This document shows, piece after piece, positions 347-27,305 of a stretch of DNA of 64,000 bases; positions within the stretch are counted from its first letter, which is position 1; every line of letters starts with the position of its first letter. Location: the NCBI GenBank assembly GCA_021777565.1, contig JAJYDJ010000003.1:65001-129000 (forward strand), written 5' to 3'. The stretch comes from a bacterium. GTDB taxonomy: Bacteria > Patescibacteriota > Microgenomatia > Levybacterales > UBA12049. Position numbers and translations under genes: made by a program. A model generated the notes under the pieces. It had not been told where the DNA came from, made no database searches, and saw only the letters and a program-made list of their open reading frames with translations.

Positions 347-421
347 GGCCCGTTCGTCTAGTGGCCTAGGACGCCTGGTTCTCATCCAGGAAATCAGGGG
401 TTCAAATCCCCTACGGGCTAC
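347..421 (+). tRNA. tRNA-Glu (anticodon CTC)
   Basis: 75-nt cloverleaf readable by eye. The 7-bp acceptor stem is GGCCCGT/ACGGGCT with discriminator A. The D-arm TCGTCTAGTGGCCTAGGAC is typical of tRNA-Glu. The anticodon stem is CCTGG/CCAGG with loop TTCTCAT, giving anticodon CUC. The T-arm is AGGGG-TTCAAAT-CCCCT. Confidence 0.85.
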
Positions 422-1925
422 TCATAGCTAAATCGGATTCAGAAATACTCAAAATAGTCTTATATTCCAAGCTAAACTCGCGATTCGACAAGCCAGAATA
501 ACACCAAGTCAACCCAACGGGAGCTATCGAACCAAGAAGTACTCTACGCTCACCTGGGTCTGAGCTCCGATAAGTATTATCCAAATGTGAAAATTTGTCA
601 CGCATAAATACCTCTACGTCTTCCATTGTGTATGCATCCAATATTGTTTCCCCTAATATCACTTCTGCATCTGCAATCTGATTTCCAATAATTTTATTCT
701 GTTCATGGTATACCTCATCTGAATATGTCCCTGCTAGATTCTTTTCAACAAGTGTTTGTCTCATTTGTTTAAGCCGAACAACCGCTTGTGTGGCTTTTTC
801 TCTCTTTGCTTGTAAGTTTGATACATTCTGATAAAAAGACTTTCTTAAAACCATCAAGAATACATCCAATTGTTCTTTTGTTGGTGCAGCAGACTGAAGA
901 AATTCTATCAGAGAATTATCAAGTTTTTCTACGGGAATAGATGGTGCCCCACATCTATTCTTACAAATATAGTACGCATACTTTTTATGTCTTCCTTTAC
1001 TCCATCCTCCAGACAGAACACCATAGCACTTACTACATTTCACAACCTTACGTAAAGGAAAATCTGGATTATCTTGCAAACGCTTACCGATAGTCATGCC
1101 AGCACGATTTCTTCCATCAATAATAGCCTGCACCTTGTAGTACTGTTCTTCAGTAACCATAGCTACATGCCGTCCTAGCACTTCTTCAGGGTACTTCGTT
1201 GAAGTAAGCATACCCATATAAAACTTGTGGCGAAACAGCCTATCAACTGTTTGCGCTCTCAATATGTATTCCTTGCCAGAGACAACCTTACGCATTCCCC
1301 ACCCATTCATTATTTTCGCCATCTCCTTCAAAGATTTTGTTCCCGTTGCCATTAAATTCCATGCATCCTTCATCTTTTCAAAATTCTCTCCATCTTTTAC
1401 AGCATATCCATGATCCATAACATATCCAATCGGCACTTTTCCTGTTACTTGTCCTGACAAGAACCTTGCCCGCAGACCATTTTTTGTCCGTTCTGATCGC
1501 ACGTCATTATCATGCTGTGCAAAACTTGCCATAATTGTCTCAAGAAGTTTTTCAGTGGGTGAGTTCCCTGTTGGTTCATTCGCAGATATTAAAGAGATCC
1601 CGTAGTCTGTCAATCTTTTACGAATTGCTAGATAGTCCTGTGTTTGCCGAGAGATTCTATCCAAACGATAAATAAATACAGCGTCGATATTTTTCTTGTT
1701 TCTTCTGCAATACTCCAGTAACTTTAATAATTCAGGTCTTCCGTTAATTGTTTTTGCCGATTTCCCTTCTTCCCTAAAAACTTCAATAATCTCAAATCCA
1801 CGACGTATTGCTTCTTTTCTACAGATTTGTTCCTGGGTATTTAAAGAAAAATTTTCAACTTGTTCCTCACTCGAAACTCTCAAGTAAATAACAGCGTTTT
1901 TATTCAAAATTGTATTTGACTCCAT
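411..1925 (-). CDS. large serine recombinase (integrase) with resolvase catalytic domain, recombinase domain and zinc ribbon
   Basis: The N-terminus AVIYLRVSSEEQ...IYRLDRISRQ is the classic resolvase/invertase catalytic-Ser motif. The protein is 504 aa. The C-terminal region carries a Cys cluster (CSKCYG...YYICKNRCG). The 3' end of the ORF overlaps the 3' end of tRNA-Glu by ~11 nt. Confidence 0.9.
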   Translation of the reverse strand: MESNTILNKNAVIYLRVSSEEQVENFSLNTQEQICRKEAIRRGFEIIEVFREEGKSAKTINGRPELLKLLEYCRRNKKNIDAVFIYRLDRISRQTQDYLAIRKRLTDYGISLISANEPTGNSPTEKLLETIMASFAQHDNDVRSERTKNGLRARFLSGQVTGKVPIGYVMDHGYAVKDGENFEKMKDAWNLMATGTKSLKEMAKIMNGWGMRKVVSGKEYILRAQTVDRLFRHKFYMGMLTSTKYPEEVLGRHVAMVTEEQYYKVQAIIDGRNRAGMTIGKRLQDNPDFPLRKVVKCSKCYGVLSGGWSKGRHKKYAYYICKNRCGAPSIPVEKLDNSLIEFLQSAAPTKEQLDVFLMVLRKSFYQNVSNLQAKREKATQAVVRLKQMRQTLVEKNLAGTYSDEVYHEQNKIIGNQIADAEVILGETILDAYTMEDVEVFMRDKFSHLDNTYRSSDPGERRVLLGSIAPVGLTWCYSGLSNREFSLEYKTILSISESDLAMSSP

Positions 1926-1929
1926 ATTC

Positions 1930-2226
1930 TCAAACTGATTGCAACAACTCTCTTAGAGTCCTATTGTTAAAGATCTTTTTCTCATATTCTTCCAACCAGT
2001 TTGTCACTAAGTACCCAAATGAAGCAATCATAGATTTTATTTCTTCAGTAGTATAGCTATTACCTACTATTTCTTTTGCCCGTAGCACCATCCTGTCTTC
2101 ATATTCTTGCTCTGGGAAAAGCTCACTCAATGTTGTTGTAAGAGTATTTGAGATATCACCTTTTTTCGTTGAAAGCGGGTTACTTGAAATCATATCATTT
2201 AGGCTCAAAACTATCGCTATATACAT
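1930..2226 (-). CDS. hypothetical protein (possible accessory/RDF-like gene of the integration module)
   Basis: 98-aa ORF immediately downstream of the integrase on the same strand. It is divergent from the XRE regulator. No recognisable motif. Confidence 0.35.
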   Translation of the reverse strand: MYIAIVLSLNDMISSNPLSTKKGDISNTLTTTLSELFPEQEYEDRMVLRAKEIVGNSYTTEEIKSMIASFGYLVTNWLEEYEKKIFNNRTLRELLQSV

Positions 2227-2275: not shown

Positions 2276-2515
2276 ATGCCCTATGGAAATATGATATTAT
2301 ATAAGCATATGGATGCGAGAGAATCTATCGGAACAGCTCTTCGGTTAGCGCGAAAAAAAAGAAAATTAACACAGTTTAAACTTTCACAGGCTGCAGGCAT
2401 AAATGCGAACTACTATGCCCAGATCGAACGAGGAGAAGTAAATGTCTCTGCCAAAATATTACAGATGATCATTGAGGTACTCAAAGTGAAGTCTTCTGAT
2501 ATTTTGCCTTACTGA
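2276..2515 (+). CDS. XRE-family helix-turn-helix transcriptional regulator (Cro/CI-like)
   Basis: LRLARKKRKLTQFKLSQAAGINANYYAQIERGE is a canonical XRE HTH. The gene is divergent from the integrase-side genes, across a 49-bp intergenic region containing the inverted repeat CAATAAACAAATATTG. Confidence 0.7.
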   Translation: MPYGNMILYKHMDARESIGTALRLARKKRKLTQFKLSQAAGINANYYAQIERGEVNVSAKILQMIIEVLKVKSSDILPY

Positions 2516-2553: not shown

Positions 2554-5388
2554 ATGTGGTGTAAAAACGATAGTTATAGATTCAAAAGAATGTATTCCAC
2601 ACAAAAAGGCAGATCCCCTACATATACATGTAAAATACTTTTTGTTATGATACATATGCTTTTATCTTCTGCCCTCAAAAGTATATATATGTCACCTATC
2701 CCTCACTGTATTATTAAAGTAGAATTGATTCAGAATACTCCTGTCTTCTCTTGTTATACTCTTCCTCACATCTCTTTTATTTCGTTTACTCCTATTTTTT
2801 ATCTCACACTTCATAGTGTAATTTTCATCTGTTCTGTGTTGTTATTTCTTCTCTGTCTTCGTGGTTTCATACAAATGAAAAGACAATTATCTGAAACACA
2901 TGTACTCCTTGAAATAATACCCCCTTCAGATACTAAGCAGACAACACTTACTACAGAACAATTTATGACAAATTTGCATAGTATCGGACAAAATAGATCA
3001 TGGTTTGATAAATTAGTTGGGAAGAAAAATATTTTTTCTCTTGAGCTTATTGCTACGAAAGAAAAAGGAATACGTTACGTGTTAGGTGTGCCAAAAGAAA
3101 TTGTTCCTATCATCAAAAGACAAGTACTCTCATTCTTAAAAGGAGCCACCATAACAGATACTGATGATTCCCTTCAGAGTATCAACAAACCTACCCATGG
3201 GATGATACGAGAACTTACGTTTCAGAGTCATTATGTATACTCTTTGCAAGAGCAATCATCACTTTCTCAGTATGATCCAATTGCATATATGACAGGGCAC
3301 ATGACAAGGCTTGGAGAGCATGAGACAATACTTCTACAAATAGTTATTACCCCAGTTACAAAGAGTTCTCACTGGTCAATATATACCTTCATTCAAAAAA
3401 CTATTCATAGAATTGAGCTTGGAGAAGACGTATCTGAAAACATAAAGAGTCATCATTCACTCTCTGCCACTATCCTTATGACTCTGCTCCTCTCTGTACC
3501 ATTTATACTCTTCGCACCTTATACGATCATTTCTCAGATTCTCCGTCCTACGAAAGATGGTAACTTTTTTCCCCTATGGCTATATACAGGCGAGAAGAAA
3601 AATCCTATGGACAGACTTACTCCTGAGAAACAGGAAATACAAAGAGATATCGCTCACAAATTGCAAAAAGAACTTTTTGAAACAACAATAAGAATTTACA
3701 GTTCCCACGAAGACCGACAAGGACAAAAGGAACGAATGCAAGGCATTCTGTCATCCTTTCAACCACTTCATACTCACTTGCAAAGGTTACATACAAAGTT
3801 TTCAATCGATGCCACGCAGTGGATTCAAGAATTCTTCCTCATGCATAGAATACTTGCGTTCAAGGGTAATCCTATTCTTTCAGTTTCAGAACTCGCAAAT
3901 CTGTATCACTTTCCATATACGCCAATCACACATACAGAAGATTTAGTGCAAAGCAAAAATCAAGAACTTCCTGTACCACTTTCTCTCAAAAATAGTACTG
4001 ACCTTGCTATTACTTTTGCTACGAATTCCTATGGGGGAATACCAACATCAATTGGACAAGATGCAAACCAAAGAAGAAAGCACACATATATTATTGGGGG
4101 TACTGGTACTGGAAAGACAACGCTTCTTTATACAATGATTATGCAAGATATTATAGCAGGACATGGAATCAATGTGACCGATCCACATGGTGATCTTATA
4201 CAGAAGATCTTGCAAACCATACCAGAAAATCGACAAGATGATGTTGTTCTTTTTGACCCTGACGATACTGAACATCCCTGTGGTTTTAATATTTTAGAGA
4301 TGCCCCAAGTACTTTCCAAGGAAGAAATGGAAAAGTATAAGGACCAACTCTGTGGTATCTTGATTGCTACTTTTCAAAAACTATTTCCTTCACGAGTAAA
4401 CGCCTATCGTATGGAACATATTTTGCGACAGGCGATTTTGACTGTACTTGAGACAGAAAGTCCAACACTTTTTACCATACAGAAGCTACTTACGGATTAC
4501 AAATATAGAAAGAGTGTTGTTGAACAACTCACTGATCCTATTTTAATTAATTTCTGGAAAAAAGAATTCGCTTCAATGGGATCCATGCAGAGAGCAGATG
4601 CTACTTCACCAATCACAACACGCCTCGGTGAATTCTTTGCGTCACATATGGCACGAAACATCCTACTCCAAAAACATACTACTATTGATTTCACGGATAT
4701 TATGAATAATAAAAAGATATTACTTTGTGATCTTTCGAAAGGGAAAATTACTGAAAGCATGAGCTCTTTCTTTGGTGCATTGATTACCGCGCAAATCGAA
4801 ATTACTGCACAACAGAGAGCACGACTACAAGAAAAGGATCGTGTAGATTTCTATGTGTATATTGATGAATTCCAAAATTTTGCCACACCAAGCTTTGCGC
4901 AAATGATGGGAGAATCACGAAAATATCGATTAAATACGATTCTTGCCCATCAGACGATCGCACAGATTGAAGATACAAATTTCATAGATATCGTTCTTGC
5001 AAATACTGGTACAGTTATTTCATTTCATACAGGGAGTCCGAGAGATGAGAGATATCTCCTACCATTCTTCGTACCAGAAGTGCTACCAGGACAGTTGAAT
5101 TCACTGCCACCCTATCACTTTTACATAAAAATCTCCAACAGCACCCCAGCTACCGTCTTTACTGGACAAACCGAGATTCTTATTTACCCTGAGAATCAAG
5201 AAAGAGCAAACAGTATCAGAGAACTTTCAAGAAACAAGTACACAAAGCAGAAATCAGAGATAGAAAGAGAAATAGTAACATTGCTCGAAGATAATGTTTC
5301 AGAAAAGAATACTGCTGATGCACAAGATCAGCTACAAAAAGCAAAAGAGTATCACTTAAAAGATGGAGGTTCTCATGAAAAGAAGTAA
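2554..5388 (+). CDS. type IV secretion coupling-protein-like ATPase (VirD4/TraG/TraD family); start uncertain
   Basis: Walker A is YIIGGTGTGKTT. Walker B is FYVYIDEFQNF. Also present are DPHGD and FDPDD...HPCGFNILE, as in TraG/TraD coupling proteins. There are N-terminal hydrophobic segments. An alternative start lies at ATG 2875 (MKRQLSE...). Confidence 0.7.
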   Translation: MWCKNDSYRFKRMYSTQKGRSPTYTCKILFVMIHMLLSSALKSIYMSPIPHCIIKVELIQNTPVFSCYTLPHISFISFTPIFYLTLHSVIFICSVLLFLLCLRGFIQMKRQLSETHVLLEIIPPSDTKQTTLTTEQFMTNLHSIGQNRSWFDKLVGKKNIFSLELIATKEKGIRYVLGVPKEIVPIIKRQVLSFLKGATITDTDDSLQSINKPTHGMIRELTFQSHYVYSLQEQSSLSQYDPIAYMTGHMTRLGEHETILLQIVITPVTKSSHWSIYTFIQKTIHRIELGEDVSENIKSHHSLSATILMTLLLSVPFILFAPYTIISQILRPTKDGNFFPLWLYTGEKKNPMDRLTPEKQEIQRDIAHKLQKELFETTIRIYSSHEDRQGQKERMQGILSSFQPLHTHLQRLHTKFSIDATQWIQEFFLMHRILAFKGNPILSVSELANLYHFPYTPITHTEDLVQSKNQELPVPLSLKNSTDLAITFATNSYGGIPTSIGQDANQRRKHTYIIGGTGTGKTTLLYTMIMQDIIAGHGINVTDPHGDLIQKILQTIPENRQDDVVLFDPDDTEHPCGFNILEMPQVLSKEEMEKYKDQLCGILIATFQKLFPSRVNAYRMEHILRQAILTVLETESPTLFTIQKLLTDYKYRKSVVEQLTDPILINFWKKEFASMGSMQRADATSPITTRLGEFFASHMARNILLQKHTTIDFTDIMNNKKILLCDLSKGKITESMSSFFGALITAQIEITAQQRARLQEKDRVDFYVYIDEFQNFATPSFAQMMGESRKYRLNTILAHQTIAQIEDTNFIDIVLANTGTVISFHTGSPRDERYLLPFFVPEVLPGQLNSLPPYHFYIKISNSTPATVFTGQTEILIYPENQERANSIRELSRNKYTKQKSEIEREIVTLLEDNVSEKNTADAQDQLQKAKEYHLKDGGSHEKK

Positions 5389-6148
5389 TGTATACATACA
5401 TAACGTTACCCCAGAACAACAGAAAATACTTTGTTGGCTAGCACTATTTACTATACTCACAAAAAAACATATGCAGAAATTGCTCAGACATAAAGATCAT
5501 AAATGGGTATCTGTCTGCATATCCAGACTACAAGCAGATGGATATGTGAAGGAAGTGCCCTTCACATTTGGAAGAACGAAAATTTTTGCATTATCAACCA
5601 AAGGAATGCTACTAGTAAAACGTATAAACACAACAGATACACAGCACAAGCAAATTGCTAAAAATATCTCATTTGCACAGATTGATCGTTTCTTGTGTAT
5701 TGCAGACGTATATGTACAACTCAATGAAAATAGTAAAGATACACTTTCATTTATCGCTAAGGCAAATCTCTCACGCGAAAGTAAAATAATAACACCGGAT
5801 GCATATCTAACATATACAGAAAGTACTCGAATAAAGACATATTTCCTTGAATTAGATAGAGAAACACAAAGCATGAATCCTATGGAAAAGAAACTTGAAA
5901 GATATTCACAGTACTTTTACTCAAAACAATGGAAAAGAATAACGCCAGACCACTTTCCAGCTGTTTGTATCATATGTTTCACACAAGAAAGAAAAAGGAA
6001 TTTGATGAATTTAGCAGAAGACCTATTTAATACGTCTCACTTCGCTCCTATTGTGTTTAAATTTACTACGCTAGATGAAATAAACAATGGTACACAAAAA
6101 GATATCTGCCTTGTTCCGTTCGAAAAAAAATTATATCCTATCCTATAG
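5363..6148 (+). CDS. hypothetical protein, possibly winged-helix / replication-relaxation-like
   Basis: 261-aa ORF that overlaps the end of the coupling-protein gene, suggesting an operon. The N-terminal region looks like wHTH. It has the size and position of the replication-relaxation family proteins of Gram-positive conjugative elements, but the family assignment is tentative. Confidence 0.4.
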   Translation: MEVLMKRSNVYIHNVTPEQQKILCWLALFTILTKKHMQKLLRHKDHKWVSVCISRLQADGYVKEVPFTFGRTKIFALSTKGMLLVKRINTTDTQHKQIAKNISFAQIDRFLCIADVYVQLNENSKDTLSFIAKANLSRESKIITPDAYLTYTESTRIKTYFLELDRETQSMNPMEKKLERYSQYFYSKQWKRITPDHFPAVCIICFTQERKRNLMNLAEDLFNTSHFAPIVFKFTTLDEINNGTQKDICLVPFEKKLYPIL

Positions 6149-6364: not shown

Positions 6365-6988
6365 ATGTATACAATTACAGGCACGGCAGGCAATAACTGG
6401 CTTGAATATTGCAAATTAGTACTAGAGTACGGGTCAGACTTTCATGATGAGGGAGAGAAGATCAAAGAACTCCTTGATGTATTCATTCTTTTTGATAATT
6501 TCGATCCTAATGACTCTATTTTCGTTAAATACGGCAATCCTCATACAATTGACTTGTATAAACAGAAAATGATCTCATTGGAGATCATTCCTGAGCTCAA
6601 TACTACCTATGGCAAAAGATTATATGCACAGCAAGGCTTTGATCAGATTAAGTGGCTTACTGATAGGCTAAAAAGGAAACCAGAGACAAAATCAGCAACA
6701 ATCTCTCTTTTACTTCCTGATGACCCTGGACCACGTATTCCATGTTTAACGACTATTGACTGTAAAGTGCGTGGTGGAAAACTGCACATGACCGTATTCT
6801 TCAGATCCCAAAATGTAGCACGCTCCTATGCAAACTTCATTAGCGTTCACTACTTACACGAGAAGATTGCAATTGATTCTGGACATCCACTAGGGCAAAT
6901 GAAGTTTATTGTCTCTTCAGCCCATATTTATGAAAGGGACATAGAACCTGTAAAGAAGATCTTGGAAGAGACCAGTGAGTTAAGATAA
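6365..6988 (+). CDS. thymidylate synthase-fold protein (ThyA / dNMP hydroxymethylase family), minimal 207-aa version
   Basis: IPCLTTIDCKVRGGKLHMTVFFRSQNVARSYANFISVHYLHEKIA aligns to the ThyA active-site block [40 protein letters not shown]. The nucleophilic Cys is present. GQMKFIVSSAHIYERD aligns to GDFVWTGGDTHLYSNH. Confidence 0.65.
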   Translation: MYTITGTAGNNWLEYCKLVLEYGSDFHDEGEKIKELLDVFILFDNFDPNDSIFVKYGNPHTIDLYKQKMISLEIIPELNTTYGKRLYAQQGFDQIKWLTDRLKRKPETKSATISLLLPDDPGPRIPCLTTIDCKVRGGKLHMTVFFRSQNVARSYANFISVHYLHEKIAIDSGHPLGQMKFIVSSAHIYERDIEPVKKILEETSELR

Positions 6989-7003: not shown

Positions 7004-7591
7004 TCATACATCTGCATTTTTATATCTATCATCAGCTTTCATTTCTTTACGAATTAATCCTCGTATAAGTTCCGTCTTACTTTTTTTGTGAATGAAGGCA
7101 GACCACTCAATGTATCTATCTTCTTGAGAGCTCAGAACTAAATTAAATCTTGTCTTTTTACCAGTTTTATTTTCTTCTAAGAACTTTTCAATAATTTCAG
7201 GTAACTCATTTGTGTTTGTGTACACTTCATCATTTAAAAGCTCTGATATAACTCCATTCGTTGTAAGTGAAAACATATCCCTATTTGTAGATTGATGCAA
7301 ATGGAGAACTGGTTTGCCTTTCTGAAGTGCAATTGTCATCTGATGTCCTGCAGTAAGACCCTTTACCGTTCCTTCAACAATAGCTACATCAGCGTTAATA
7401 ATAGAGGTAATAATATCTGCGTAGAGTTTATCGAAATCAACTTTATTCTTAGTTTCTTGGTTTTGTAGGGCCTCATCAATCCAATCTCTAGTCAACTCAT
7501 GTCCGAGACTCACGATTATTTCACAAATTTGTTTATAAATAGGGAAGTATTCAGGAAGTTTTGATGTTGAGGTGATAAAAACAACTTTCAT
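7004..7591 (-). CDS. nucleoside 2-deoxyribosyltransferase / DNPH1(Rcl)-like protein
   Basis: ADVAIVEGTVKGLTAGHQMTIALQKGKPVLHLHQ parallels the DNPH1 segment ADVVVAEVTQPSLGVGYELGRAVALGKPILCLFR. A small Rossmann-like fold begins at MKVVFITS. Confidence 0.5.
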   Translation of the reverse strand: MKVVFITSTSKLPEYFPIYKQICEIIVSLGHELTRDWIDEALQNQETKNKVDFDKLYADIITSIINADVAIVEGTVKGLTAGHQMTIALQKGKPVLHLHQSTNRDMFSLTTNGVISELLNDEVYTNTNELPEIIEKFLEENKTGKKTRFNLVLSSQEDRYIEWSAFIHKKSKTELIRGLIRKEMKADDRYKNADV

Positions 7592-7632
7592 ATATAAGAG
7601 CTATACTTAACTTCATTTATTTATGTAAAGTA

Positions 7633-10581: not shown

Positions 10582-10582
10582 T

Positions 10583-12187: not shown

Positions 12188-12192
12188 AACAT

Positions 12193-14226: not shown

Positions 14227-14244
14227 TAAGATTAAATAACTTGT

Positions 14245-16327: not shown

Positions 16328-16365
16328 ATCTTAATAATCTCTGTTTATGAAAAATATTTCCAATA

Positions 16366-18442: not shown

Positions 18443-20603
18443 ACTTATGAGAAAGAAAGATATTGCACCAATAAGATTATTAAAAAGCCCTTTTGGGGCA
18501 TATAGAAATCGACGAATCGTTGGTGATATAAAATCTGAGATTAAAGAGATCTTGCGTAAAAAATCGTTAGCTGAGAAAGGACTCGCGAGTGAAAGAAGCA
18601 AATTCTCTCAATTGAAAGCGAAAACGGAACATCTATACGATATTTATTCTGGCCTTGAAGCATTGAAACAGCTACATAAGCTTCCTCCTCAAAAGGCAGA
18701 GAACAAAGCTATAGAAATATTAAAGGCTGAAATTAAGCGCCTTGAAGCATTAGTGACACTCCAAAGAGAAGAATTAACCAAGAATTTTTATGAAAATCCT
18801 CTTCTCGGGATCCACAAGCCTGTATTTGAGAGATCATACAATCCTATACGTTTCGTTACCAATCTTGTTCACTATAACAAAGAAAAACAAATCTATAACA
18901 AAGTCGTAAACGAGTCAAAGCACGCTGAATACAACAATATCATTGGAAAAGAAGCTAATCATATTCATGTCTCAAATAATGGCACCAGACAATATAAAAG
19001 CGAACAACTGATTGAGAAACAGCAATACATTGAACTTGGAGATAAACTTGTTGCAACGTACTATCTTGCTGATATTCCCGCATATTTAAACCCGTATTCA
19101 TTTTTCAAACTCATTAGCTCATCTCTTCCTTTTACTATCAGCATGTTTATTAAACCAACAGTAAATAGTTCACTCATTAAAATTGCACGTCAGCGATTAT
19201 CTGTGCTTGAGATGCAACAAAAAGAACGTGTGAATAAAGGCAAATTACGTGATGTTGAAACAGATAAACATATTGAGGAAACTTCTGCCTTCCTTGAAGA
19301 CTTAGTGCATGAGCTCGAGAGAGGTATTGAATATAGACTCTTTCTGTCCTTAGAAGCAAAAGATAAAGATGAACTCAAAAGATTACACAAGGAATTACGT
19401 AATGTCGCTGATGCTATGGAGTTTTCCTTTGCACGGTTCTTATATGGGCAGAAAAAGGCATTTGAAGCAACATTACCATTCAATACAAATCTCTTCGTTC
19501 ATAATCGTGTTATCCAGTCATCGGGAGCCGCCTATCTTATGCCATTTATTACAAAACAAATTCACGATCCTGAGGGTGTGTTTCTTGGAATTAATGCATA
19601 TTACGATAGTTTGGTATTTCTGAATCCATCTAGTGTAAGAAATAGCAATGTAAACATTCTAGGAGTATCAGGAGCAGGTAAATCTGTAACTGCGAAAGCA
19701 TTAGCAACACGACTGTATACTCGAGGGACACAAGTCATTATTATTGATCCCGAAGGCGAATATGTTGAATTTGCCAAGGCACTTGGGGGAGAAGTAGTTC
19801 AGTTCTCACGAAAAAATGGTATCAATCCATTCTCACTACGTAGCAAGGAAGAAGATGCTATCTTAGACCATGTAACTATCCTTAAAACGTTCTTCAAATC
19901 ATTCATCCCCGATGACACCTATGATAGCGCCGTACTTGATCAAGTTCTTGTATCGCTGTATAAGAATAGTGAACCAACATTCGAAAATTTCCTCAAATCA
20001 CTCCAGAAAGACCCCATGCACAAATACCTTAATGTGCTCAGTGAAGGCAGCTTACAAGGCATCTTTAACGCAAAACGAGAATTAGAGCTTACTAACGATC
20101 TTATTGTCTTTGATATTTCTCCACTCGGAGACACCGAGAAGAAGGCACCAGCAATGTATCTTCTTACAAGCCTCATTTGGCAACTAGTGAATAAGAAAAG
20201 TGATCGTAAACGAATGTTATTCATAGATGAAGCACATAAATTACTCAAAGACCGTGAAGTAGCAATTTTTTACAGGGAAATGGTTAAACAGGCAAGAAAA
20301 AGAAATTTAGGTGTGGTATCTATTACCCAGGATGTTGAGGATTTTCTTCATGGAGAGTTCGGAAAAGCAATTATCACCAATTCTGAAACAAAGATATTTC
20401 TCAAACAGTCATATGCTACTCTCAATCTCCTCAAGGATATTTTTCCTATGACACAGGAAGAGAGACAACAGTTGGGAAACTTGAATATTGGAGAAATGAT
20501 CCTCTTTCGAGAAAATGAACACATGAGAGTAGATTTTATGGTACTTCCTCACGAAGAACCATTTATCTTCCCCAAAACATATGCAGAAAATTCATCAGAG
20601 TAA
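18414..20603 (+). CDS. VirB4/TrbE/CagE-family type IV secretion ATPase
   Basis: Walker A is ILGVSGAGKSVTAKAL. IIIDPEGEY is present. Walker B is MLFIDEAHKLL. The protein is 729 aa. Confidence 0.9.
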   Translation: MHIVNHNYSRLMRKKDIAPIRLLKSPFGAYRNRRIVGDIKSEIKEILRKKSLAEKGLASERSKFSQLKAKTEHLYDIYSGLEALKQLHKLPPQKAENKAIEILKAEIKRLEALVTLQREELTKNFYENPLLGIHKPVFERSYNPIRFVTNLVHYNKEKQIYNKVVNESKHAEYNNIIGKEANHIHVSNNGTRQYKSEQLIEKQQYIELGDKLVATYYLADIPAYLNPYSFFKLISSSLPFTISMFIKPTVNSSLIKIARQRLSVLEMQQKERVNKGKLRDVETDKHIEETSAFLEDLVHELERGIEYRLFLSLEAKDKDELKRLHKELRNVADAMEFSFARFLYGQKKAFEATLPFNTNLFVHNRVIQSSGAAYLMPFITKQIHDPEGVFLGINAYYDSLVFLNPSSVRNSNVNILGVSGAGKSVTAKALATRLYTRGTQVIIIDPEGEYVEFAKALGGEVVQFSRKNGINPFSLRSKEEDAILDHVTILKTFFKSFIPDDTYDSAVLDQVLVSLYKNSEPTFENFLKSLQKDPMHKYLNVLSEGSLQGIFNAKRELELTNDLIVFDISPLGDTEKKAPAMYLLTSLIWQLVNKKSDRKRMLFIDEAHKLLKDREVAIFYREMVKQARKRNLGVVSITQDVEDFLHGEFGKAIITNSETKIFLKQSYATLNLLKDIFPMTQEERQQLGNLNIGEMILFRENEHMRVDFMVLPHEEPFIFPKTYAENSSE

Positions 20604-21339
20604 TCACTTCACAGAAATCGTCTCAGTTATAGATGGTCCCCTACAAGCGATCCTTAATAGCTTAGTACGCATTTTTCTCACGATGTTCCTCCCTTTCCCT
20701 ATTCCAGATGAAATTATCATGGAGCTCAGAGCATCAATACTCCAAATTCTTTTTATATTACTTCTTGTTCTTATTCTCACTGTCGTCAGCCTTATTGGCA
20801 TTTTCACTCTTCCATTAACACACCAAGTCACGACAATTGCTCCAGCAAGCGATAGCTCTTTCTCTGGGACAGATGTACCGTTTCAGAACCCATTAGGGGG
20901 AATTGGACTATCTTTTGTGCGTATTACTGCATACTTCCATGATAGTGACTATTACGCTCAATTTGGATTATGGCATGAAGGAGTAGATTTCGTACCATCT
21001 GACGCATATTACAAACAAAGTACAGCATATAATGCTCCTAAGAACGTTAATCATGACATTGATGTTTTCTCAACAATTAATGGTGTGGTAACTTATTATC
21101 AGGACCAATACGGATCACACACTATTGAGGTTTTAAACAATGAAGGGACACTAAAGGTTATATTTATGCATTTGAACGACGTATTTGTGAGTACAGGACA
21201 GTCCATAACTGCCGGAACACCGGTGGGAACCATGGGAGATACAGGCTTCTCAACAGGAGAACATTTACATTACCAAATAGATATAAGTAATAATGATTCA
21301 TGGACACCCATTGATCCTTTGGGATATATAAAACAATGA
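20581..21339 (+). CDS. M23-family metallopeptidase (cell-wall hydrolase of the transfer apparatus); start uncertain
   Basis: GTMGDTGFSTGEHLHYQI matches the M23 HxH region, with the HxxxD region further upstream. There is an N-terminal TM segment. An internal Met at ~20719 is a plausible start. Confidence 0.8.
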   Translation: MQKIHQSNHFTEIVSVIDGPLQAILNSLVRIFLTMFLPFPIPDEIIMELRASILQILFILLLVLILTVVSLIGIFTLPLTHQVTTIAPASDSSFSGTDVPFQNPLGGIGLSFVRITAYFHDSDYYAQFGLWHEGVDFVPSDAYYKQSTAYNAPKNVNHDIDVFSTINGVVTYYQDQYGSHTIEVLNNEGTLKVIFMHLNDVFVSTGQSITAGTPVGTMGDTGFSTGEHLHYQIDISNNDSWTPIDPLGYIKQ

Positions 21340-21716
21340 TAAAACTATTTCTAAGACATACAATAGGCACAAAAGTTTTTCTCTATACGAGCGCAATACT
21401 TATTTTCATAATATGGTTTATTTACTTCCATATCATGGAGTACCACTATTGGCTCCAATCTGAGTGGCGTGTCTTTCTTTCTGCATTTATCCTTCTTTTG
21501 TCAGAAGGATTTATCTTTTTTTTGAATCAAAAATGCCGAAGTAAGAAAGAAGAAAAGCAATGGGATTTGATTACATCCATACCCAGAGAAGAGACAGAGA
21601 CACATCATATTCACACTATTGCTGATGGGATGAAGAAAGAATCGCAAAAAGAGGCAACGATTGCCTTTCACGAAGATATCCAGAAAAGAGAGGAGAAAGC
21701 ATGGAAAATACTTTAA
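21336..21716 (+). CDS. hypothetical membrane protein
   Basis: 126 aa with 2-3 TM helices, in the operon with the T4SS genes. Confidence 0.4.
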   Translation: MIKLFLRHTIGTKVFLYTSAILIFIIWFIYFHIMEYHYWLQSEWRVFLSAFILLLSEGFIFFLNQKCRSKKEEKQWDLITSIPREETETHHIHTIADGMKKESQKEATIAFHEDIQKREEKAWKIL

Positions 21717-22483
21717 ATCCAAGACAGAGACAAAGATTAAAAATTGCAGTGATCATCATATCACTTCTATTTTTGCTTGGATACTTCTTTTTTCTATTCA
21801 GTAGGCATGATACGAACGAACAACAGCAAAACCCTGACCAAGTGGTATTTCAACAACCACTTCTCCAAGTTTTTCAATATAAGGAAACACTCAATACATA
21901 CCCCGATGCTATCCGTATACATTATCCCTATCTTTTAGTTGTTAGACCAAATGAAGGAACTACACAAATCTACAATTTACAGCAGAAAACTAAAGATAAA
22001 AAAACTAATGCAGTTCTTCTTGATTATTACGAAGAAATCGAAATATATAACAAAGCAGGCAAAACATACGTCGACAATACAAACCTCAATGTACTTTGTA
22101 CGCTTGCTTTCATGAAGACGAAGCAAGATGTTCTGTGCGTTACCAAACTTGACAGTAACAAACCTGACGTTTCTCTTATTGAGATTGATACAAATACTCT
22201 TACACAAAAAATATTACATACCTCACACATGCTCATTACCGCAATATACTATGCAAATAGTACAATATATCTAGGAGAATATGATCCAGTAATTCAAAAA
22301 TCATTTATCTCAACAAATAACGACACTATTCCTGTACCTGACTGGATTAATATTATCTATCCTATGAATAGCCAGATATACCTTGCCTCTTTTAAGAGTG
22401 TAAGAAATAACAATAAAGAATCTTACAGTTTATTCCAAAACAATAATATAAACTTGATAACACAAGGTGAAATTAGGTTCTAA
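21701..22483 (+). CDS. hypothetical N-terminally anchored extracytoplasmic protein
   Basis: 260 aa with a single N-terminal TM helix and an Asn/Thr-rich exported domain. Confidence 0.4.
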   Translation: MENTLNPRQRQRLKIAVIIISLLFLLGYFFFLFSRHDTNEQQQNPDQVVFQQPLLQVFQYKETLNTYPDAIRIHYPYLLVVRPNEGTTQIYNLQQKTKDKKTNAVLLDYYEEIEIYNKAGKTYVDNTNLNVLCTLAFMKTKQDVLCVTKLDSNKPDVSLIEIDTNTLTQKILHTSHMLITAIYYANSTIYLGEYDPVIQKSFISTNNDTIPVPDWINIIYPMNSQIYLASFKSVRNNNKESYSLFQNNNINLITQGEIRF

Positions 22484-22539: not shown

Positions 22540-23652
22540 ATGAGAAGCTTTGTGGCTAACAATTTAACTTTTACCTCAATACTATCAAATGCACCTAAAT
22601 TAGTGTCTCTTTTTTCTGGCTGCGGTGGATTAGACCTTGGATTCAAGATGGCAGGATATGAAATAGTTTGGGCAAATGATTTTGATCATTGGTCGTGTGA
22701 GACTTATAAAAGAAATTTTGGTGACCATATTTTAGAAGGAGATATTACTAAAATAAATTTTGATGAAATTCCTGACGCAGATATCATAACTGGTGGATTT
22801 CCATGTCAAGATTTCTCCATGATATGGAAGCGTGAAGGCTTAGGGACAGAAAGAGGCAATCTATATACTTACTTCGTTAAAGCAGTTAAAACAAAAATGC
22901 CAAAAGTTTTTGTAGCAGAGAATGTAAAGGGGTTGTTAACAGCTAATGGAGGAAAAGCTATACAACAAATTGTAAATGATTTTGCAAAATTAGGGTATAA
23001 GATAAATATTGATCTATATAACTTTGCCGAGTATGGAGCACCCCAACTGAGAGAGAGAGTACTAATTGTTGGTGTTAGATCTGATTTGGAATTTTCATTT
23101 AAAAAACCAGAGCCTTTGAGGAATAGTTGGAATTATATGACAGCTGGGGAAGCCCTCTTAGGGGTAGAGAAAGTGAACTACAACAATGAACATCAGAATA
23201 TAAAAGAGAAAACAAAAGAGATGCTTAAGTTAATTCCAGAAGGTGGTAACTTCAGCTCAATTCCTAAAGATAGTCCATATTACGTAAAAGGCATGATTAG
23301 TCACGTGTACCGAAGGCTCCACCGCAACAAGCCCTCTACAACTATTATTGCTGGTGGTGGTGGTGGGACATGGGGGTATCATTACGAAGAACCACGTCCG
23401 TTGACTAATAGAGAAAGAGCTCGTTTGTTTGGTTACCCAGATAATTTTGTGTTCGAAGGATCAATAAGTGAAGTTCGTCATCAAATTGGTAATTCTGTCC
23501 CTCCTATTGCCGCTAAAGTTGTTGCACAGCAATTGCTCCCAGCATTCGAAGCAAATTCTATTGTTGTAGTAAATTCAAAGAATGAAGTTGATTATACTCA
23601 AAAAATTGAAAGTACTTTGAATCTAAAACAATTTACGTTTGCGTTAGGATAA
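22540..23652 (+). CDS. DNA (cytosine-5)-methyltransferase
   Basis: Motif I is LFSGCGGLDLGF. Motif IV is GGFPCQDFS. Motif VI is ENVKGL. Motif X is QIGNSVPP. Confidence 0.9.
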   Translation: MRSFVANNLTFTSILSNAPKLVSLFSGCGGLDLGFKMAGYEIVWANDFDHWSCETYKRNFGDHILEGDITKINFDEIPDADIITGGFPCQDFSMIWKREGLGTERGNLYTYFVKAVKTKMPKVFVAENVKGLLTANGGKAIQQIVNDFAKLGYKINIDLYNFAEYGAPQLRERVLIVGVRSDLEFSFKKPEPLRNSWNYMTAGEALLGVEKVNYNNEHQNIKEKTKEMLKLIPEGGNFSSIPKDSPYYVKGMISHVYRRLHRNKPSTTIIAGGGGGTWGYHYEEPRPLTNRERARLFGYPDNFVFEGSISEVRHQIGNSVPPIAAKVVAQQLLPAFEANSIVVVNSKNEVDYTQKIESTLNLKQFTFALG

Positions 23653-23654
23653 TT

Positions 23655-24713
23655 ATGGCACTTTTATTTTCTAATTTTCCACCACTAAGAACATCTTATC
23701 CTACATATTCTTCCATTTTTAAAGAAAATTTGCAGGTATCAGAAAAGGTGAAAATTGCAACAGGGTATATCTCGTCAGATTCTGCAATAGATTTGAAGCG
23801 CATTATAGAAGACAACAATGGGCCTCATGTTGAGTTATGTGTTGGGATGCAATATTTTGATGGGTTGAACCCAGCTCAAAAAGATGCTTTAGAAAGTTTA
23901 AATACTTCACTGCAAAACAATAACTTAGGAAGAGTATATATGGTAACAACATTCCCATTTCATGGAAAGGTTGTATCCTTTTCAAGGAAAGACACTGTAA
24001 CCTGTTCTATCATCGGATCGTCAAACTTATCAAATATAATTGATGACTGTAGGCAATATGAAGCTGATTATCTATTCAATCAATGCAAGGAGTCTGATGA
24101 ACTCGATCAATTTATCAAAAAATTAATAACAGTCTCGTCACAACCCTTAGAAGGGCTTCAATTAAAGATCATCGAGCCAAATAATGATCTTCTTGCTAAT
24201 CAAATGGGGGTACAGAAATTGACTCTTAAAGATGTACAAAATGCTATGCAGAACCTATCAGATCTAAAATTTCAAATTCCATTAAAAGGCAATGAAGCTC
24301 CCAAAAGTAGCCTTAATCCTTTTTTCGGAGAGGGGAGAAAGAATATTCAAGGATTCATTATACCTCGGCCTTGGTATGAAGTTGAACTTATTGTTCCTAA
24401 GTCAATCACACAATCTGATGGATATCCTAATTCAAAAATTACTCAGGACAATTCATTTCCAGTAATTACGGATGATGGATGGTCATTTCAATGTAAAGTA
24501 AGTGGCGATTACAGCAAGAACTTTCGTTCATGTAATGATTTAAAGATTCTAGGCAAATGGATAAAGGGAAGACTTGAAAACGCTGGAGCATTAAAACCAG
24601 GAGAACTTGTAACAGATACGACTTTTTATAAATATGGACGATCAAGTATCGATTTTACTAGAATAAAAAATTCTGAGAGTTGGTATTTGGATTTTGGAGT
24701 TAATAATGGATAA
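23655..24713 (+). CDS. PLD-superfamily nuclease, candidate restriction endonuclease (NgoFVII/BfiI-like)
   Basis: FHGKVVSF...IIGSSNLSN resembles the PLD HxK...GSxN signature. The size (352 aa) matches BfiI-type enzymes. It starts 3 nt after the MTase stop. Confidence 0.45.
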   Translation: MALLFSNFPPLRTSYPTYSSIFKENLQVSEKVKIATGYISSDSAIDLKRIIEDNNGPHVELCVGMQYFDGLNPAQKDALESLNTSLQNNNLGRVYMVTTFPFHGKVVSFSRKDTVTCSIIGSSNLSNIIDDCRQYEADYLFNQCKESDELDQFIKKLITVSSQPLEGLQLKIIEPNNDLLANQMGVQKLTLKDVQNAMQNLSDLKFQIPLKGNEAPKSSLNPFFGEGRKNIQGFIIPRPWYEVELIVPKSITQSDGYPNSKITQDNSFPVITDDGWSFQCKVSGDYSKNFRSCNDLKILGKWIKGRLENAGALKPGELVTDTTFYKYGRSSIDFTRIKNSESWYLDFGVNNG

Positions 24714-26598
24714 TCACCTTACAAATTATCTTAAAATACTTGAGCAAACATCTTCAGATGCTGTATTGTCAGTAAAAAATACCGTAGAGAAAATTATTCC
24801 AGAACATATAGAATCATTTACACATAAGGAACATATTAGAGGTTTACTGTTAGGGCAAGTGCAAAGCGGTAAAACAAGTCAAATGCTCGGTATTATCGCT
24901 GCTACAGCTGATATAGACAATGGTTTCAAAATATTTGTTCTTCTTACAACCGATAATACTGCTTTACAGCAACAAACTCTGAAAAGAGCACTTGCCTCCA
25001 TGGACACATTCAATGTATGTGATGAGCACGATGAGATGCGCTTTATGGAAGGTGGTATTCGTAAACCATCTTTAATTGTTCTGAAGAAAAATTCGAGTAT
25101 CCTAAAAACGTGGAGGAATATTCTAGGTTCATCGGAACTCAATAAAGGTCGACCAATATTCTTGGTTGATGATGAAGCTGACGCTGCTAGTCTTAATACA
25201 CTAGTTAACAAACAAGAACAAAGTGCAATTAATACACATTTAGAGGCCATATTAAAACTTTTTACAAGTAGTGTTTATCTACAGGTAACGGCAACCCCCC
25301 AATCATTGTTTTTACAAACCGAAGAATCTGGTTGGAAACCTTCATTCGTACACTACTTTCCTCCAGGTAAAAATTATTTAGGCGGGAACTTTTTTTATAC
25401 AAAACCAAAACCATTTACAAACAGATTTACTCAAGATGATGAACTACAAGTCCTCTTAAGAGAGAAATTCATTGCCGATGGACTTAAGCTTGCCATAGAA
25501 AACTTCCTTATAACCTCATCACATCTTACATTGGGGTCTGAATCAAGTGTTTGTAACTTTCTAGTACATCCTAGTGTAAAAATTGACGATCATGAAAAGA
25601 TTAAATCAAAAGTCGTTGACTATCTCAATTATATATTCTCATCTCTTGATTCCAAAGACGTTATTTCTAGACTTAAACATGCGTGGGATGATCTGAAAAC
25701 ATCAAAGCCAGATCTTATTGCATTCGAAGATATTGTGAGTTTTTTGGCAACAAAACCAGAAATAACTGTTATTACAATGAACTCTGGACCAAAGAGTGAT
25801 GCACATTTGACCTATGATGAAGGTCTCAATATTGTTATTGGAGGAAATAGTTTAGGAAGAGGGGTCACATTCAAATGCCTTCAAACAGTTTATTATTGTC
25901 GATCTTCTAAAATACCTCAGGCAGATACTTTCTGGCAACATAGCAGAATGTTTGGTTATGATAGAGACCCTTTACTTATGAGAGTTTTTATGCCACAAGC
26001 GTTATTTAATATGTTCTCAGAGATCAATGATTCAAATGAGATTCTTATCAAGCAAATTGAAGAGAACAAGTTTGATGAAATTCAAATAGTAACTAGTAAT
26101 AAAATTAAACCTACTAGGAAAAATGTTATAGATCAAGATAGATATAATTATCTCGTAGGGGGTGTTAATTACTTTCCACCATATCCTGATCAAGACAACC
26201 TTGCTCTTATGGATAACATTCTGAATAATTTTGATTCAACGAAGAAAGTACATGATATAACAATCGATGATTTGGTGAAAATAGTTTCTAACCTAAAATC
26301 TGATCTATCAAATAGCTGGTCGATTGAATCATTTGTAAATGCATTACTTGCTGTAAAAGCTCAGAGAGGTACTCCTAACCTGGCAAAGCTTATTATCAGA
26401 AGAGACAGAGATATTGGATATGGGACAGGTACTATGCTATCCCCTGATGATAGACAACTAGGAAATGATATTGAGAACCTTCCTGTAATTACTTTCTATA
26501 GGATTAATGGGCAAAAGGAGAAAAACTGGCAAGGACATCCATTCTGGATGCCTAATATAAAACTTCCAATAGGGAAGGTTTTCCATAGAGTGGATTAG
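24694..26598 (+). CDS. Z1-domain P-loop ATPase (R-M-associated)
   Basis: GLLLGQVQSGKTSQMLG is the Z1-type Walker A. A DEAD-like LVDDEAD is present. It overlaps the nuclease gene by 20 nt. Confidence 0.5.
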   Translation: MELIMDNHLTNYLKILEQTSSDAVLSVKNTVEKIIPEHIESFTHKEHIRGLLLGQVQSGKTSQMLGIIAATADIDNGFKIFVLLTTDNTALQQQTLKRALASMDTFNVCDEHDEMRFMEGGIRKPSLIVLKKNSSILKTWRNILGSSELNKGRPIFLVDDEADAASLNTLVNKQEQSAINTHLEAILKLFTSSVYLQVTATPQSLFLQTEESGWKPSFVHYFPPGKNYLGGNFFYTKPKPFTNRFTQDDELQVLLREKFIADGLKLAIENFLITSSHLTLGSESSVCNFLVHPSVKIDDHEKIKSKVVDYLNYIFSSLDSKDVISRLKHAWDDLKTSKPDLIAFEDIVSFLATKPEITVITMNSGPKSDAHLTYDEGLNIVIGGNSLGRGVTFKCLQTVYYCRSSKIPQADTFWQHSRMFGYDRDPLLMRVFMPQALFNMFSEINDSNEILIKQIEENKFDEIQIVTSNKIKPTRKNVIDQDRYNYLVGGVNYFPPYPDQDNLALMDNILNNFDSTKKVHDITIDDLVKIVSNLKSDLSNSWSIESFVNALLAVKAQRGTPNLAKLIIRRDRDIGYGTGTMLSPDDRQLGNDIENLPVITFYRINGQKEKNWQGHPFWMPNIKLPIGKVFHRVD

Positions 26599-26633
26599 TT
26601 GTTTTATTTATCAACCGCGAGTTATCATAAATA

Positions 26634-26978
26634 TCAGTTTCTACTCTCAATTCTAGTCCTTATTCTCGCCCTATTCTGCTCATGTTCAGCAACTACCTCC
26701 TTATATTGATCCTCTCCTCCCATAACTGCGGCTAGATATAGCATACCAAAGTCAATTCCATACTTTGCAGTATAGTAACCACCAAGTTCAGCGAAAGGAC
26801 TAAGCTTTTCCTTACCACCTTTTGTCTCCTTCTGAACTTTCTTTATAAATTCTACATCTTCTGGTGGAACTTGCCCAATAAAGGCCAATTCAACAAGATT
26901 GATCTGATTTTGGGTTAACACAATCTTATCTTCAGATAAAATCTCAATATCGTTCATTTTGTTTTTCATTGACTTCAT
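26634..26978 (-). CDS. hypothetical protein
   Basis: 114-aa ORF, convergent with the R-M block. It is the last gene before the AT-rich gap that precedes the core chromosome genes. Confidence 0.4.
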   Translation of the reverse strand: MKSMKNKMNDIEILSEDKIVLTQNQINLVELAFIGQVPPEDVEFIKKVQKETKGGKEKLSPFAELGGYYTAKYGIDFGMLYLAAVMGGEDQYKEVVAEHEQNRARIRTRIESRN

Positions 26979-27305
26979 TATACAATACTCTTGTAGGAAT
27001 TACGTTTACAGCCATAAGCATCCATTAGTTTAAATATCCAGACTAGAAGCGGTTCGATGGTGTTTGCATTGAGTCTGCACTTTTCACACCTTTTAGCCTC
27101 AAAATAGCCTATAATCTTGACCCAGTACCCCTACATATGGTATACTACCGTTAGCAGATTGAGAGAAATGATCTGCTTAATAAGCAGTATATTTGATTAG
27201 ATAAGTAAAAGATAAAAGTAATAGAAATTTTAATATCCGTATCTTTCTTCACTAACTCCAAATCATCTTCATTAAGCAGTTCCTTTTTTCTCAACTGCAT
27301 AGTAT

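Follow-up and report, generated by a model that had tools for sequence, protein, structure and literature searches.

The 64,000-nucleotide stretch analysed here (the window; positions 65,001–129,000 of contig JAJYDJ010000003.1) comes from a Patescibacterium of the Microgenomates/Levybacteria neighbourhood with a genome of approximately 1 Mb. We consider it very probable that positions 420–27074 of the window (26.66 kb; predicted circle 26,657 bp) are an integrative conjugative-type element belonging to a tRNA-targeting serine-integrase family. The element has an intact integrase and is bounded by identifiable attachment sites, attL and attR, and both a coupling protein and a VirB4-containing secretion block lie between these sites. 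Together with a relaxase candidate of the MobC superfamily and with the VirB6, VirB2-like and hydrolase genes beside VirB4, this gene content fits an integrative and conjugative element (ICE). A sequence-only reading of the window had proposed such an element, and the mapped ends, integrase, coupling protein, relaxase candidate and transfer block support it.

The only tRNA gene found in the window by ARAGORN, tRNA-Glu(CTC) at 347–421 on the forward strand, agrees with the Rfam prediction (60.7 bits) and is the integration target. Rightward from it follow the integrase, an XRE-family regulator, the VirD4-type coupling protein, cargo genes, a seven-gene secretion block, a three-gene restriction–modification (R-M) unit and then housekeeping genes, which begin at 27306 with a DEAD-box helicase and continue with an IMPDH-family protein, a DUF4147/MOFRL protein and a transketolase. 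All gene features listed in the sequence-only reading were recovered with Pfam, PADLOC and ARAGORN at or near the positions given there, as was the switch to housekeeping genes, from the helicase onward. The right-hand boundary that it placed at approximately 27300 exists, but its true position is 27074–27076. The GC content is approximately 0.32–0.39 as far as approximately 29 kb, a range that includes the low-GC element, and 0.40–0.47 past there. The closest relatives of the helicase, at most 64% identical, come from Patescibacteria metagenome-assembled genomes labelled Levybacteria/Levyibacteriota, Microgenomates, Woesebacteria and others.

Element ends and attachment sites

The crossover at attL falls on the dinucleotide CT at 418–419, which corresponds to positions 71–72 of the tRNA (context GGTTCAAATCCCCTACGGG[CT]ACTCATAGCTAAATCGGATTC), and that at attR on the CT at 27075–27076 (context GGTGTTTGCATTGAGT[CT]GCACTTTTCACACC), with host DNA from 27077. 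The tRNA junction reads ACGGG[CT]ACTCATAGC and the attR junction reads GCATTGAGT[CT]GCAC. The CT is the sole identity common to attL and attR, as expected for a serine integrase. Inverted half-sites (TGAGT[CT]ACTCA) flank this core and extend imperfectly to TCGAACC and TCGGATTC. The sites thus have the non-palindromic 2-bp core, little other identity and inverted half-sites that identify substrates of a serine integrase. The predicted junctions are GAATCCGATTTAGCTATGAGT-AG-ACTCAATGCAAACACCATCGAACC for attP and GGTTCAAATCCCCTACGGG-CT-GCACTTTTCACACCTTTTAGCC for attB.

Positions 1–72 of the tRNA are host-derived, and the discriminator base A73 (position 420 of the window) and everything 3′ of it come from the element; the tRNA stays intact because the element supplies this base and the 3′ trailer. 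No direct repeat of the tRNA 3′ end that could serve as attR was found in the window within 3 mismatches over 20 nt, and general repeat searches of the window returned chance-level pairs only. A displaced tRNA fragment is lacking because a serine integrase exchanges strands at a 2-bp core.

Further pairs of attachment sites were sought via integrase relics in 80 metagenome loci, among which L088 and L089 alone were usable, the relic in L160 being uninformative. The P arm of attP (26979–27074, reverse strand), which also encodes the C-terminal integrase extension described below, is identical to L089 at 57/75 nt and to L088 at 58/75 nt (76–77%). This similarity stops at the junction, and only 12/40 of the next 40 nt are identical. 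In L088, where the target is tRNA-Glu(TTC), the common core is GT in the tRNA sense, at the same tRNA positions; L089 has a GT core and the same geometry, with no intact tRNA detected at its integrase end. With CT here and GT in L088, the central dinucleotide co-varies with the target tRNA.

The integrase and its family

The integrase is a large serine recombinase encoded at 411–1925 on the reverse strand, with 504 residues in the integrated state. It comprises a Resolvase domain with the nucleophilic serine (PF00239, 3.8e-34), a Recombinase domain (PF07508) and a zinc ribbon (PF13408, Zn_ribbon_recom), and it matches a PHROG integrase profile (1.4e-71). It has 860 homologues, and the YxRVS catalytic motif (Y14, R16, V17 and S18) is invariant across 30 of them; the protein aligns full length with relatives at 55–77% identity, which disposes of the possibility, raised in the sequence-only reading, that the recombinase is a truncated pseudogene. 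As that reading had stated, the gene ends inside the 3′ end of tRNA-Glu(CTC): its TAG stop is the reverse complement of 411–413, in the T-stem/acceptor region, and both this stop and the two codons before it (Ser-Pro; the crossover falls within the Ser codon) are read from the tRNA antisense strand.

A metagenome scan with the integrase alignment returned 444 relatives. Among the examined loci, 76 extend at least 90 nt beyond the integrase and are therefore informative, and in 67 of these the 3′ end of the integrase gene meets a tRNA gene of the opposite strand. The targets in these 67 loci are tRNAs for Leu (28), Glu (20), Phe (8) and His (4), in addition to Arg, Tyr, Thr, Ala, Gly and Ser. 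In other genomes, homologues that are 55–77% identical likewise have a small co-directional open reading frame (ORF) at the integrase 5′ side and an opposite-strand tRNA at the 3′ end, often with a coupling protein and a Replic_Relax gene on the 5′ side and with ordinary host genes past the tRNA. The integrase family is large and apparently undescribed, and its targets are tRNA genes, at positions 71–72 of the acceptor stem. Targeting of tRNA genes has been described as ‘not known’ for serine integrases (PMC7192596). The remark in the sequence-only reading that a serine integrase at a tRNA is uncommon is right according to Mageeney et al.; the integrase family described here follows this pattern as a rule.

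Many of the called homologue proteins (P0001–P0120) end in a G-x-R-T-x-D-type sequence, which is the antisense translation of the tRNA T-arm. The C-termini in databases are therefore partly tRNA-encoded and vary with the target.

An integrase reading frame across attP

When the element ends are joined in silico, the integrase ORF grows from 504 to 534 aa; the integrase gene runs across attP. The added tail is ..AMS-RLNANTIEPLLVWIFKLMDAYGCKRNSYKSIV and the 30-aa extension is ..LNANTIEPLLVWIFKLMDAYGCKRNSYKSIV, and in the predicted circle the stop of the extended integrase overlaps the ATG of a 114-aa gene (TAATG). The predicted excised integrases of L089 and L088 have 530 and 537 aa, respectively, with similar tails, and the tail motif WIFKLMDAYGCK also ends the database integrase P0050 (546 aa, 55% identical). 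Across the P arm, only the integrase phase is open. In three pairwise comparisons, the ratio of synonymous to non-synonymous changed codons in the integrase frame is 5:6, 5:4 and 5:6 (sum 15:16), and in the other two frames it is 1:11, 2:10 and 1:11 (sum 4:32) and 2:9, 2:8 and 0:11 (sum 4:28). The single open frame and these codon-change ratios speak for translation of the tail. As long as the element is integrated, the tail region is not covered by any ORF that has a start codon.

The 114-aa gene (26634–26978, reverse strand) is the terminal gene of the element, and its homologues in the L088 and L089 elements likewise lie at the far end. A full HMMER scan of 1.84 billion proteins with its product returned eight cluster representatives, which are small relatives, and a word-indexed search returned only the protein itself. 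A single-sequence AlphaFold2 model is all-helical and of low confidence (predicted local distance difference test score of 51), too poor for structure searching.

On this arrangement, the integrated copy would make a 504-aa protein ending in tRNA-antisense codons, and the excised circle would make a 534-aa integrase with the conserved tail, translationally coupled to the 114-aa gene, which suggests state-dependent recombination control as the function of the tail. Streptococcal ICEs offer a precedent for the attP-spanning arrangement: with their rumA-targeting serine integrases, the integrase gene and its target swap their 3′ parts (PMC4701971). For a tRNA as the target, and for coupling to a gene downstream, no precedent is known.

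Regulator, coupling protein and relaxase candidate

A 98-aa protein is encoded on the reverse strand at 1930–2226, in the same direction as the integrase and separated from it by 4 bp on the upstream side; 73 of the 76 informative loci have a homologue immediately upstream of the integrase. It had no Pfam or PHROG match in profile searches, and we infer that it is a candidate recombination directionality factor or integrase partner. Only 50 bp separate this operon from a divergent operon that encodes the XRE regulator and the coupling protein. The XRE-family helix-turn-helix protein (2276–2515, forward strand; Pfam HTH_3, 1.1e-10) is probably the switch regulator; in L089, its homologue adjoins the terminal gene, of 107 aa. 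The VirD4/TraG-type coupling protein (2554–5388, forward strand; 944 aa) matches PF10412, PF02534 and PF12696 and has N-terminal transmembrane segments. Upstream sequence of 4 kb or more is available for 44 loci, and in 29 of them a homologue of the coupling protein lies upstream of the integrase.

The next ORF (5363–6148, forward strand) matches the Replic_Relax family PF13814 over nearly the whole profile (positions 1–183 of 191; E-value of 2.5e-14; 54.3 bits, with a cut-off of 25.3 bits). A relaxase candidate is therefore recognisable, and the statement in the sequence-only reading that none could be recognised was wrong. By this profile match, the element appears to carry a relaxase of its own. 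PF13814 has been classed in the MobC relaxase superfamily (Coluzzi et al. 2017, PMC5357655) and assigned the PD-(D/E)XK fold (Steczkiewicz et al. 2012, PMC3424549), and pairs of VirD4 and MobC proteins are typical of some mobilizable plasmids and integrative mobilizable elements (IMEs; PMC5704250). The ORF also shows weak matches to ‘replication-relaxation’ genes of Bacillus conjugative plasmids. The relaxase candidate was detected in 11 of the 27 loci with at least 7 kb of upstream sequence, a count limited by the sensitivity of tblastn.

The type IV secretion block

Seven genes on the forward strand at 16070–22483 constitute a type IV secretion system (T4SS) block, which is identified by Pfam matches, transmembrane prediction and a gene order that is conserved in other contigs. 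The block begins with a TrbC/VirB2-like pilin of 85 aa (16070–16327; 26.4 bits, just below the cut-off of 27.9 bits) and a TrbL/VirB6-like protein with six transmembrane segments (16366–17646; PF04610). These are followed by a 269-aa membrane protein (17633–18442), the VirB4 ATPase (18414–20603; PF19044/PF12846) and an M23 cell-wall hydrolase (20581–21339; PF01551). A 126-aa protein with two transmembrane segments (21336–21716) and a 260-aa membrane-anchored protein (21701–22483) complete the block; these two and the 269-aa protein were characterized by transmembrane prediction. That one cluster combines VirB4 with a cell-wall hydrolase and a polytopic VirB6-like protein marks a system of the monoderm type (MPF_FATA-like or Patescibacterial).

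The gene order of the block is conserved in L094, L258, L259/L260 and L095–L097. L258 carries all seven genes of the block (pilin 95% and VirB4 66% identical), with a 96-aa gene and then a family integrase immediately behind them. In L131, a single unrelated ORF on the reverse strand comes after the block tail, and beyond it lie a small gene, the integrase and tRNA-Leu(TAA); L134 has the block tail, small gene, integrase and tRNA-Leu(TAA) as in L131. Behind the block of L259/L260 come a gene with a weak Replic_Relax-like match (22.1 bits, under the 25.3-bit cut-off) and one for a coupling protein. Judged from these contigs, linkage of the block to the integrase family is recurrent, not universal. 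Most family loci in view carry the coupling protein and, where detectable, the relaxase only, and look mobilizable; some members, including the window element, also carry the secretion block.

A small PLDc_2 protein (146–171 aa) recurs at the edge of secretion-block regions (L089:11604–12095, L094:14391–14873, L095:12952–13437, L097:20715–21230 and L088:5116–5556). It stands directly after the integrase in L089, and may mark a boundary or be a common neighbour of elements.

Conjugation, mobility and alternative origins

Several observations weigh against a conjugative element that is still mobile. The relaxase assignment is one of remote homology, with 24–30% identity to the nearest relatives, and a search for an origin of transfer (oriT) near the relaxase gene gave short, unconvincing inverted repeats only. 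In the secretion block, no VirB8/TcpC-like component was recognised, and the 260-aa and 269-aa proteins have no significant family match. The VirB4 protein belongs to a widespread Patescibacterial clade, with hundreds of homologues at 52–59% identity. Quinonero-Coronel et al. (2025, PMC12102498) describe this clade as chromosomal, in most cases lacking a relaxase, and as possibly co-opted to serve other functions. In that report, the coupling protein is usually encoded elsewhere, the terms integrase and tRNA occur 0 times, and T4SS genes are essential for epibiotic growth in Saccharimonadia. The blocks of L094–L097 show no integrase, coupling protein or relaxase within view, and L089 has a distant, different secretion block outside its integrase element.

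The observations on the block would also be explained if the island is real and the block is the usual Patescibacterial T4SS, serving an epibiotic lifestyle or effector delivery and merely lying within or captured by the element, so that the coupling protein, relaxase and integrase alone form a mobilization module. We judge this somewhat unlikely: the block lies between attL and attR and would excise with the element, and elsewhere it stands directly beside a family integrase (L258), one ORF away (L131 and L134) or beside a Replic_Relax-like gene and a coupling protein (L259/L260). Such repeated linkage to integrase, relaxase-like and coupling genes is not expected of a purely housekeeping machine.

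Mobility is at present a deduction, because neither an empty tRNA-Glu site nor a circular junction was found in assemblies. Exact-protein look-ups returned seven flank-bearing and six integrase-bearing contigs (7/7 and 6/6) that are 100% identical to the window, and these identical integrated copies include GCA_027350285.1 and a 953-kb ENA contig. In a one-genome-per-species collection, the best 80 of 182 relatives of the DEAD-box helicase were at most 64% identical and showed no synteny and no empty site. Among these 80 loci, tRNA-Glu(CTC) was in view in two, not beside the helicase, and the common neighbours were a small zinc-ribbon gene only, plus an IMPDH gene in three loci.

Relics of integrase C-termini lie just outside attR in L089 (4865–5083, residues 431–503) and in L088 (2535–2867, residues 393–503). 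They are 36–47% identical to the window integrase and oriented as the resident integrase, and point to successive insertion and replacement at one tRNA. In the window, the sequence at 27098–27116, on the host side of attR, has a 17/20-nt direct match (E-value of approximately 0.5) to 448–467 in the integrase 3′ coding region, which may be a worn relic of an earlier element at tRNA-Glu or may be due to chance.

The relics outside attR show that accretion happens. Together with the short match beside attR, the identical and integrated state of all assemblies, and the adjacency in L089 of XRE and terminal genes that lie 24 kb apart here, they could indicate an element that is fixed and no longer mobile, a composite of tandem accretion at tRNA-Glu and internal deletions whose attL and attR never recombine. 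This origin is unlikely in our view, as the integrase is intact with its catalytic residues kept, the crossover dinucleotides are identical (CT/CT) and the half-sites are still inverted repeats, the read-through frame across attP is still open and its tail conserved, and coding density is high with no visible pseudogenes.

The phage-like genes beyond the tRNA suggest another assignment of the integrase. Left of the tRNA and outside the window lie genes for RecT, an exonuclease, a DnaD-like loader and a CHAP endolysin, and these phage-type recombination, replication and lysis genes are co-directional with the integrase. The integrase could accordingly belong to this region, as part of a prophage, with the secretion and cargo region being unrelated chromosome. 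Such an assignment is extremely improbable. In other family loci, ordinary host DNA lies past the tRNA (GreA, ribosomal protein L33 and glycosyltransferases), and the conserved partners (the 98-aa gene, coupling protein and relaxase) are always on the integrase 5′ side. Moreover, attR maps at 27075, on the secretion-system side, and the integrase operon is only 50 bp from the divergent operon of the XRE regulator and coupling protein. The family is also nearly absent from viral contigs: among 2.9 million, one true family member was found, a single-protein scan with the window integrase gave no match, and the predicted attP sequence was absent. A prophage in 420–27074 was itself rejected, as Pfam and PHROGs revealed no virion structural, packaging or lysis genes there.

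The phage-like left block (L004:11612–21515, the approximately 9.6 kb that adjoin window position 1 on its left) encodes RecT, a RecE/YqaJ-like exonuclease, a pentapeptide-repeat protein, the DnaD-like loader, the CHAP endolysin and small neighbours. It abuts the 5′ side of tRNA-Glu, with 33 bp from the tRNA to the first ORF (window 66–314). No integrase belonging to the left block is in view; the block may be a distinct prophage, or may itself carry the tRNA. Separate assemblies break at the same points: L002 and L003 both begin at 26185, inside the Z1 gene of the R-M unit, and L005 and L006 end near the pentapeptide-repeat gene, approximately 2975 bp left of window position 1. These shared breakpoints could reflect repeats, coverage or strain variation.

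Cargo genes and the R-M unit

The cargo consists of a type II R-M unit, a thymidylate-synthase-like and deoxyribosyltransferase-like pair, and a nine-gene operon. What the sequence-only reading had taken as a 10-gene cargo operon is really the thymidylate-synthase-like gene, two reverse-strand ORFs and the nine-gene operon. The short thymidylate-synthase-family enzyme (6365–6988, forward strand; 207 aa) matches PF00303 (4.7e-13) and the PHROG thymidylate synthase, and scores 85.8 bits with TIGR03283, under the cut-off. In an alignment with ThyA from the PDB, its catalytic Cys is conserved, and so is the Asn that occupies the pyrimidine-recognition position; the Asn argues for a uracil nucleotide substrate. 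The first of the reverse-strand ORFs (7004–7591; 195 aa) is weakly annotated as a nucleoside 2-deoxyribosyltransferase or Rcl-like protein, being 23–26% identical to PF05014-bearing proteins in L097 and L119, with non-significant matches to Rcl/DNPH1 in the PDB; the second (7613–7837; 74 codons) is doubtful. Relatives of the thymidylate-synthase-like and deoxyribosyltransferase-like proteins occur together in a gene cluster of L119.

The L119 cluster (L119:2149–8444) lies downstream of a family integrase with no tRNA detected, and consists of nucleotide-metabolism genes. It comprises a Ham1 pyrophosphatase, two QueC-like PP-loop proteins, a class I/II aminotransferase, a thymidylate-synthase-like protein (34% identical to that of the window), an AAA_17 kinase, and dCTP-deaminase-like and deoxyribosyltransferase-like proteins, and it looks like a modified-pyrimidine or salvage pathway.

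The nine co-directional genes of the operon (7922–15982, forward strand) were annotated using Pfam, NCBIfam, PHROGs, the PDB (for the HD protein) and transmembrane prediction. They encode, in order, a GFO/IDH/MocA oxidoreductase, a DegT/PseC-type aminotransferase, a NUDIX protein, a 548-aa membrane protein resembling glycosyltransferase family 2 (GT2), a P-loop protein resembling deoxynucleoside monophosphate kinases, a HAD phosphatase, a polysaccharide deacetylase, a YpgQ/YedJ-type HD phosphohydrolase and a GT2 glycosyltransferase. The operon thus mixes sugar-nucleotide tailoring (oxidoreductase, PseC-like aminotransferase and deacetylase) and two membrane GT2-type transferases with nucleotide handling (NUDIX, YpgQ-like HD, P-loop kinase and HAD enzymes). 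PDB sequence searches with the 548-aa glycosyltransferase-like and the 234-aa kinase-like proteins gave no matches, and a scan of viral contigs with the 548-aa protein returned nothing. Our best guess is a nucleotide-sugar or glycan pathway for a cell-envelope or surface glycan, with precursor supply.

Phage-type DNA hypermodification was considered for the thymidylate-synthase-like, kinase, NUDIX, HD, HAD and glycosyltransferase set. It is not supported, because the transferases look membrane-bound (GT2/GtrB-like) and none match known DNA-modifying enzymes, PHROGs, PADLOC and the PDB giving no match between the cargo and known DNA-modifying transferases. It is a speculation that the element could alter pyrimidines of its own DNA during transfer by means of the thymidylate-synthase-like, kinase, NUDIX, HD and HAD genes.

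The type II R-M unit (22540–26598, forward strand) was identified with Pfam and PADLOC and consists of adjoining genes for a C5 cytosine methyltransferase, an NgoFVII-type PLD endonuclease and a Z1/helicase-domain protein, all matched full length by PADLOC (MTase_II, 6e-118; REase_II, 6e-91; Helicase_II, 6e-204). Another family element, in L128, carries a methyltransferase that is 74% identical. In L094, whose secretion block is most closely related to that of the window (VirB4 78% identical), an AAA_15 ATPase and a UvrD-type helicase (10956–14148), a Gabija-like pair, occupy the slot in which the window has its R-M unit; the position behind the block seems to be open to an exchange of defence genes.

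Discussion

From the junctions, the large serine recombinase would integrate the element by joining attP to the last two base pairs of the tRNA-Glu(CTC) acceptor stem (positions 71–72, CT). Excision would probably involve the conserved 98-aa partner, under control of the XRE regulator. Judging by gene content, the MobC-superfamily relaxase would then nick oriT, and the VirD4-type coupling protein would pass the DNA on to the monoderm-type secretion machine that the element itself encodes, with the VirB2-like, VirB6 and VirB4 proteins, the M23 hydrolase and three membrane proteins as its parts.

Integration into tRNA genes by other means is familiar. The archaeal SSV-type integrases are tyrosine recombinases whose gene is split mid-way by integration into a tRNA gene; like the window element, they have attP within the integrase ORF at a tRNA target. 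The serine recombinase of phage phiRSM, which uses a tRNA-Ser site (cited in PMC7192596), is a small enzyme of the resolvase-like kind and does not belong to the large serine recombinases. With tyrosine-integrase islands and ICEs (PMC7192596, PMC4701971), the element shares a site at the tRNA 3′ end, restoration of the tRNA, an integrase beside the tRNA and tandem accretion. However, its recombinase belongs to an unrelated family and its crossover, of 2 bp, lies at the very end of the acceptor stem, whereas tyrosine-integrase islands have a tRNA-fragment direct repeat of tens of base pairs.

The streptococcal rumA ICEs (Ambroset et al. 2016, PMC4701971) resemble the element in the Resolvase, Recombinase and zinc-ribbon architecture of the recombinase, in very short junction identity, in an attachment site within the 3′ end of the integrase gene with exchange of the C-terminus, and in conjugation genes of the monoderm type. 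They differ in host phylum, and here a tRNA-gene end is targeted and not disrupted, the secretion genes are of the Patescibacterial clade, the relaxase candidate is of the MobC/Replic_Relax type, and the tail of the excised form is conserved and coupled to a downstream gene. The Patescibacterial T4SS clusters related to MPF_FATA (PMC12102498) have the same VirB4 clade, VirB6, VirB2-like pilin and cell-wall hydrolase in one block; in contrast to those chromosomal and mostly relaxase-less clusters, the block here lies inside an element that is bounded by attachment sites and also encodes a coupling protein and a MobC-type relaxase candidate. Mobilizable plasmids and IMEs, for example two Streptococcus IMEs (PMC5704250, PMC5357655), have a similar adjacent pair of coupling-protein and PF13814/MobC genes but no mating-pore block; in the window element, the pair comes together with a serine integrase that targets tRNA genes and with a full secretion block.

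More broadly, and as a tentative proposal that is possible rather than probable, the orphan Patescibacterial T4SSs and thousands of stray VirD4 genes may be parts of one conjugative ecosystem of modular elements that would enter tRNA genes by means of large serine recombinases of a dedicated clade, and whose divergent MobC/Replic_Relax relaxases would go largely unnoticed in standard screens. Integration would remodel the integrase in these elements, with loss of the 30-aa tail and uncoupling of the 114-aa gene acting as a switch between entering and resident states.

tRNA genes are conserved landing sites, which makes the integrase family relevant to the mining of integrases for genome engineering. 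An attP-spanning ORF with a tail made from the excised form only offers a case of state-dependent control that is open to biochemical study.

Patescibacteria make up a large share of bacterial diversity, and to our knowledge almost nothing is known of gene exchange among them. The comparison of loci presented here points to a large, modular and tRNA-targeting family of elements in this group, and suggests that Patescibacterial secretion machines can serve conjugation. Here, a secretion system, a coupling protein and a MobC-type relaxase candidate share one excisable unit, a linkage repeated in related contigs, which makes the question of conjugation directly testable.

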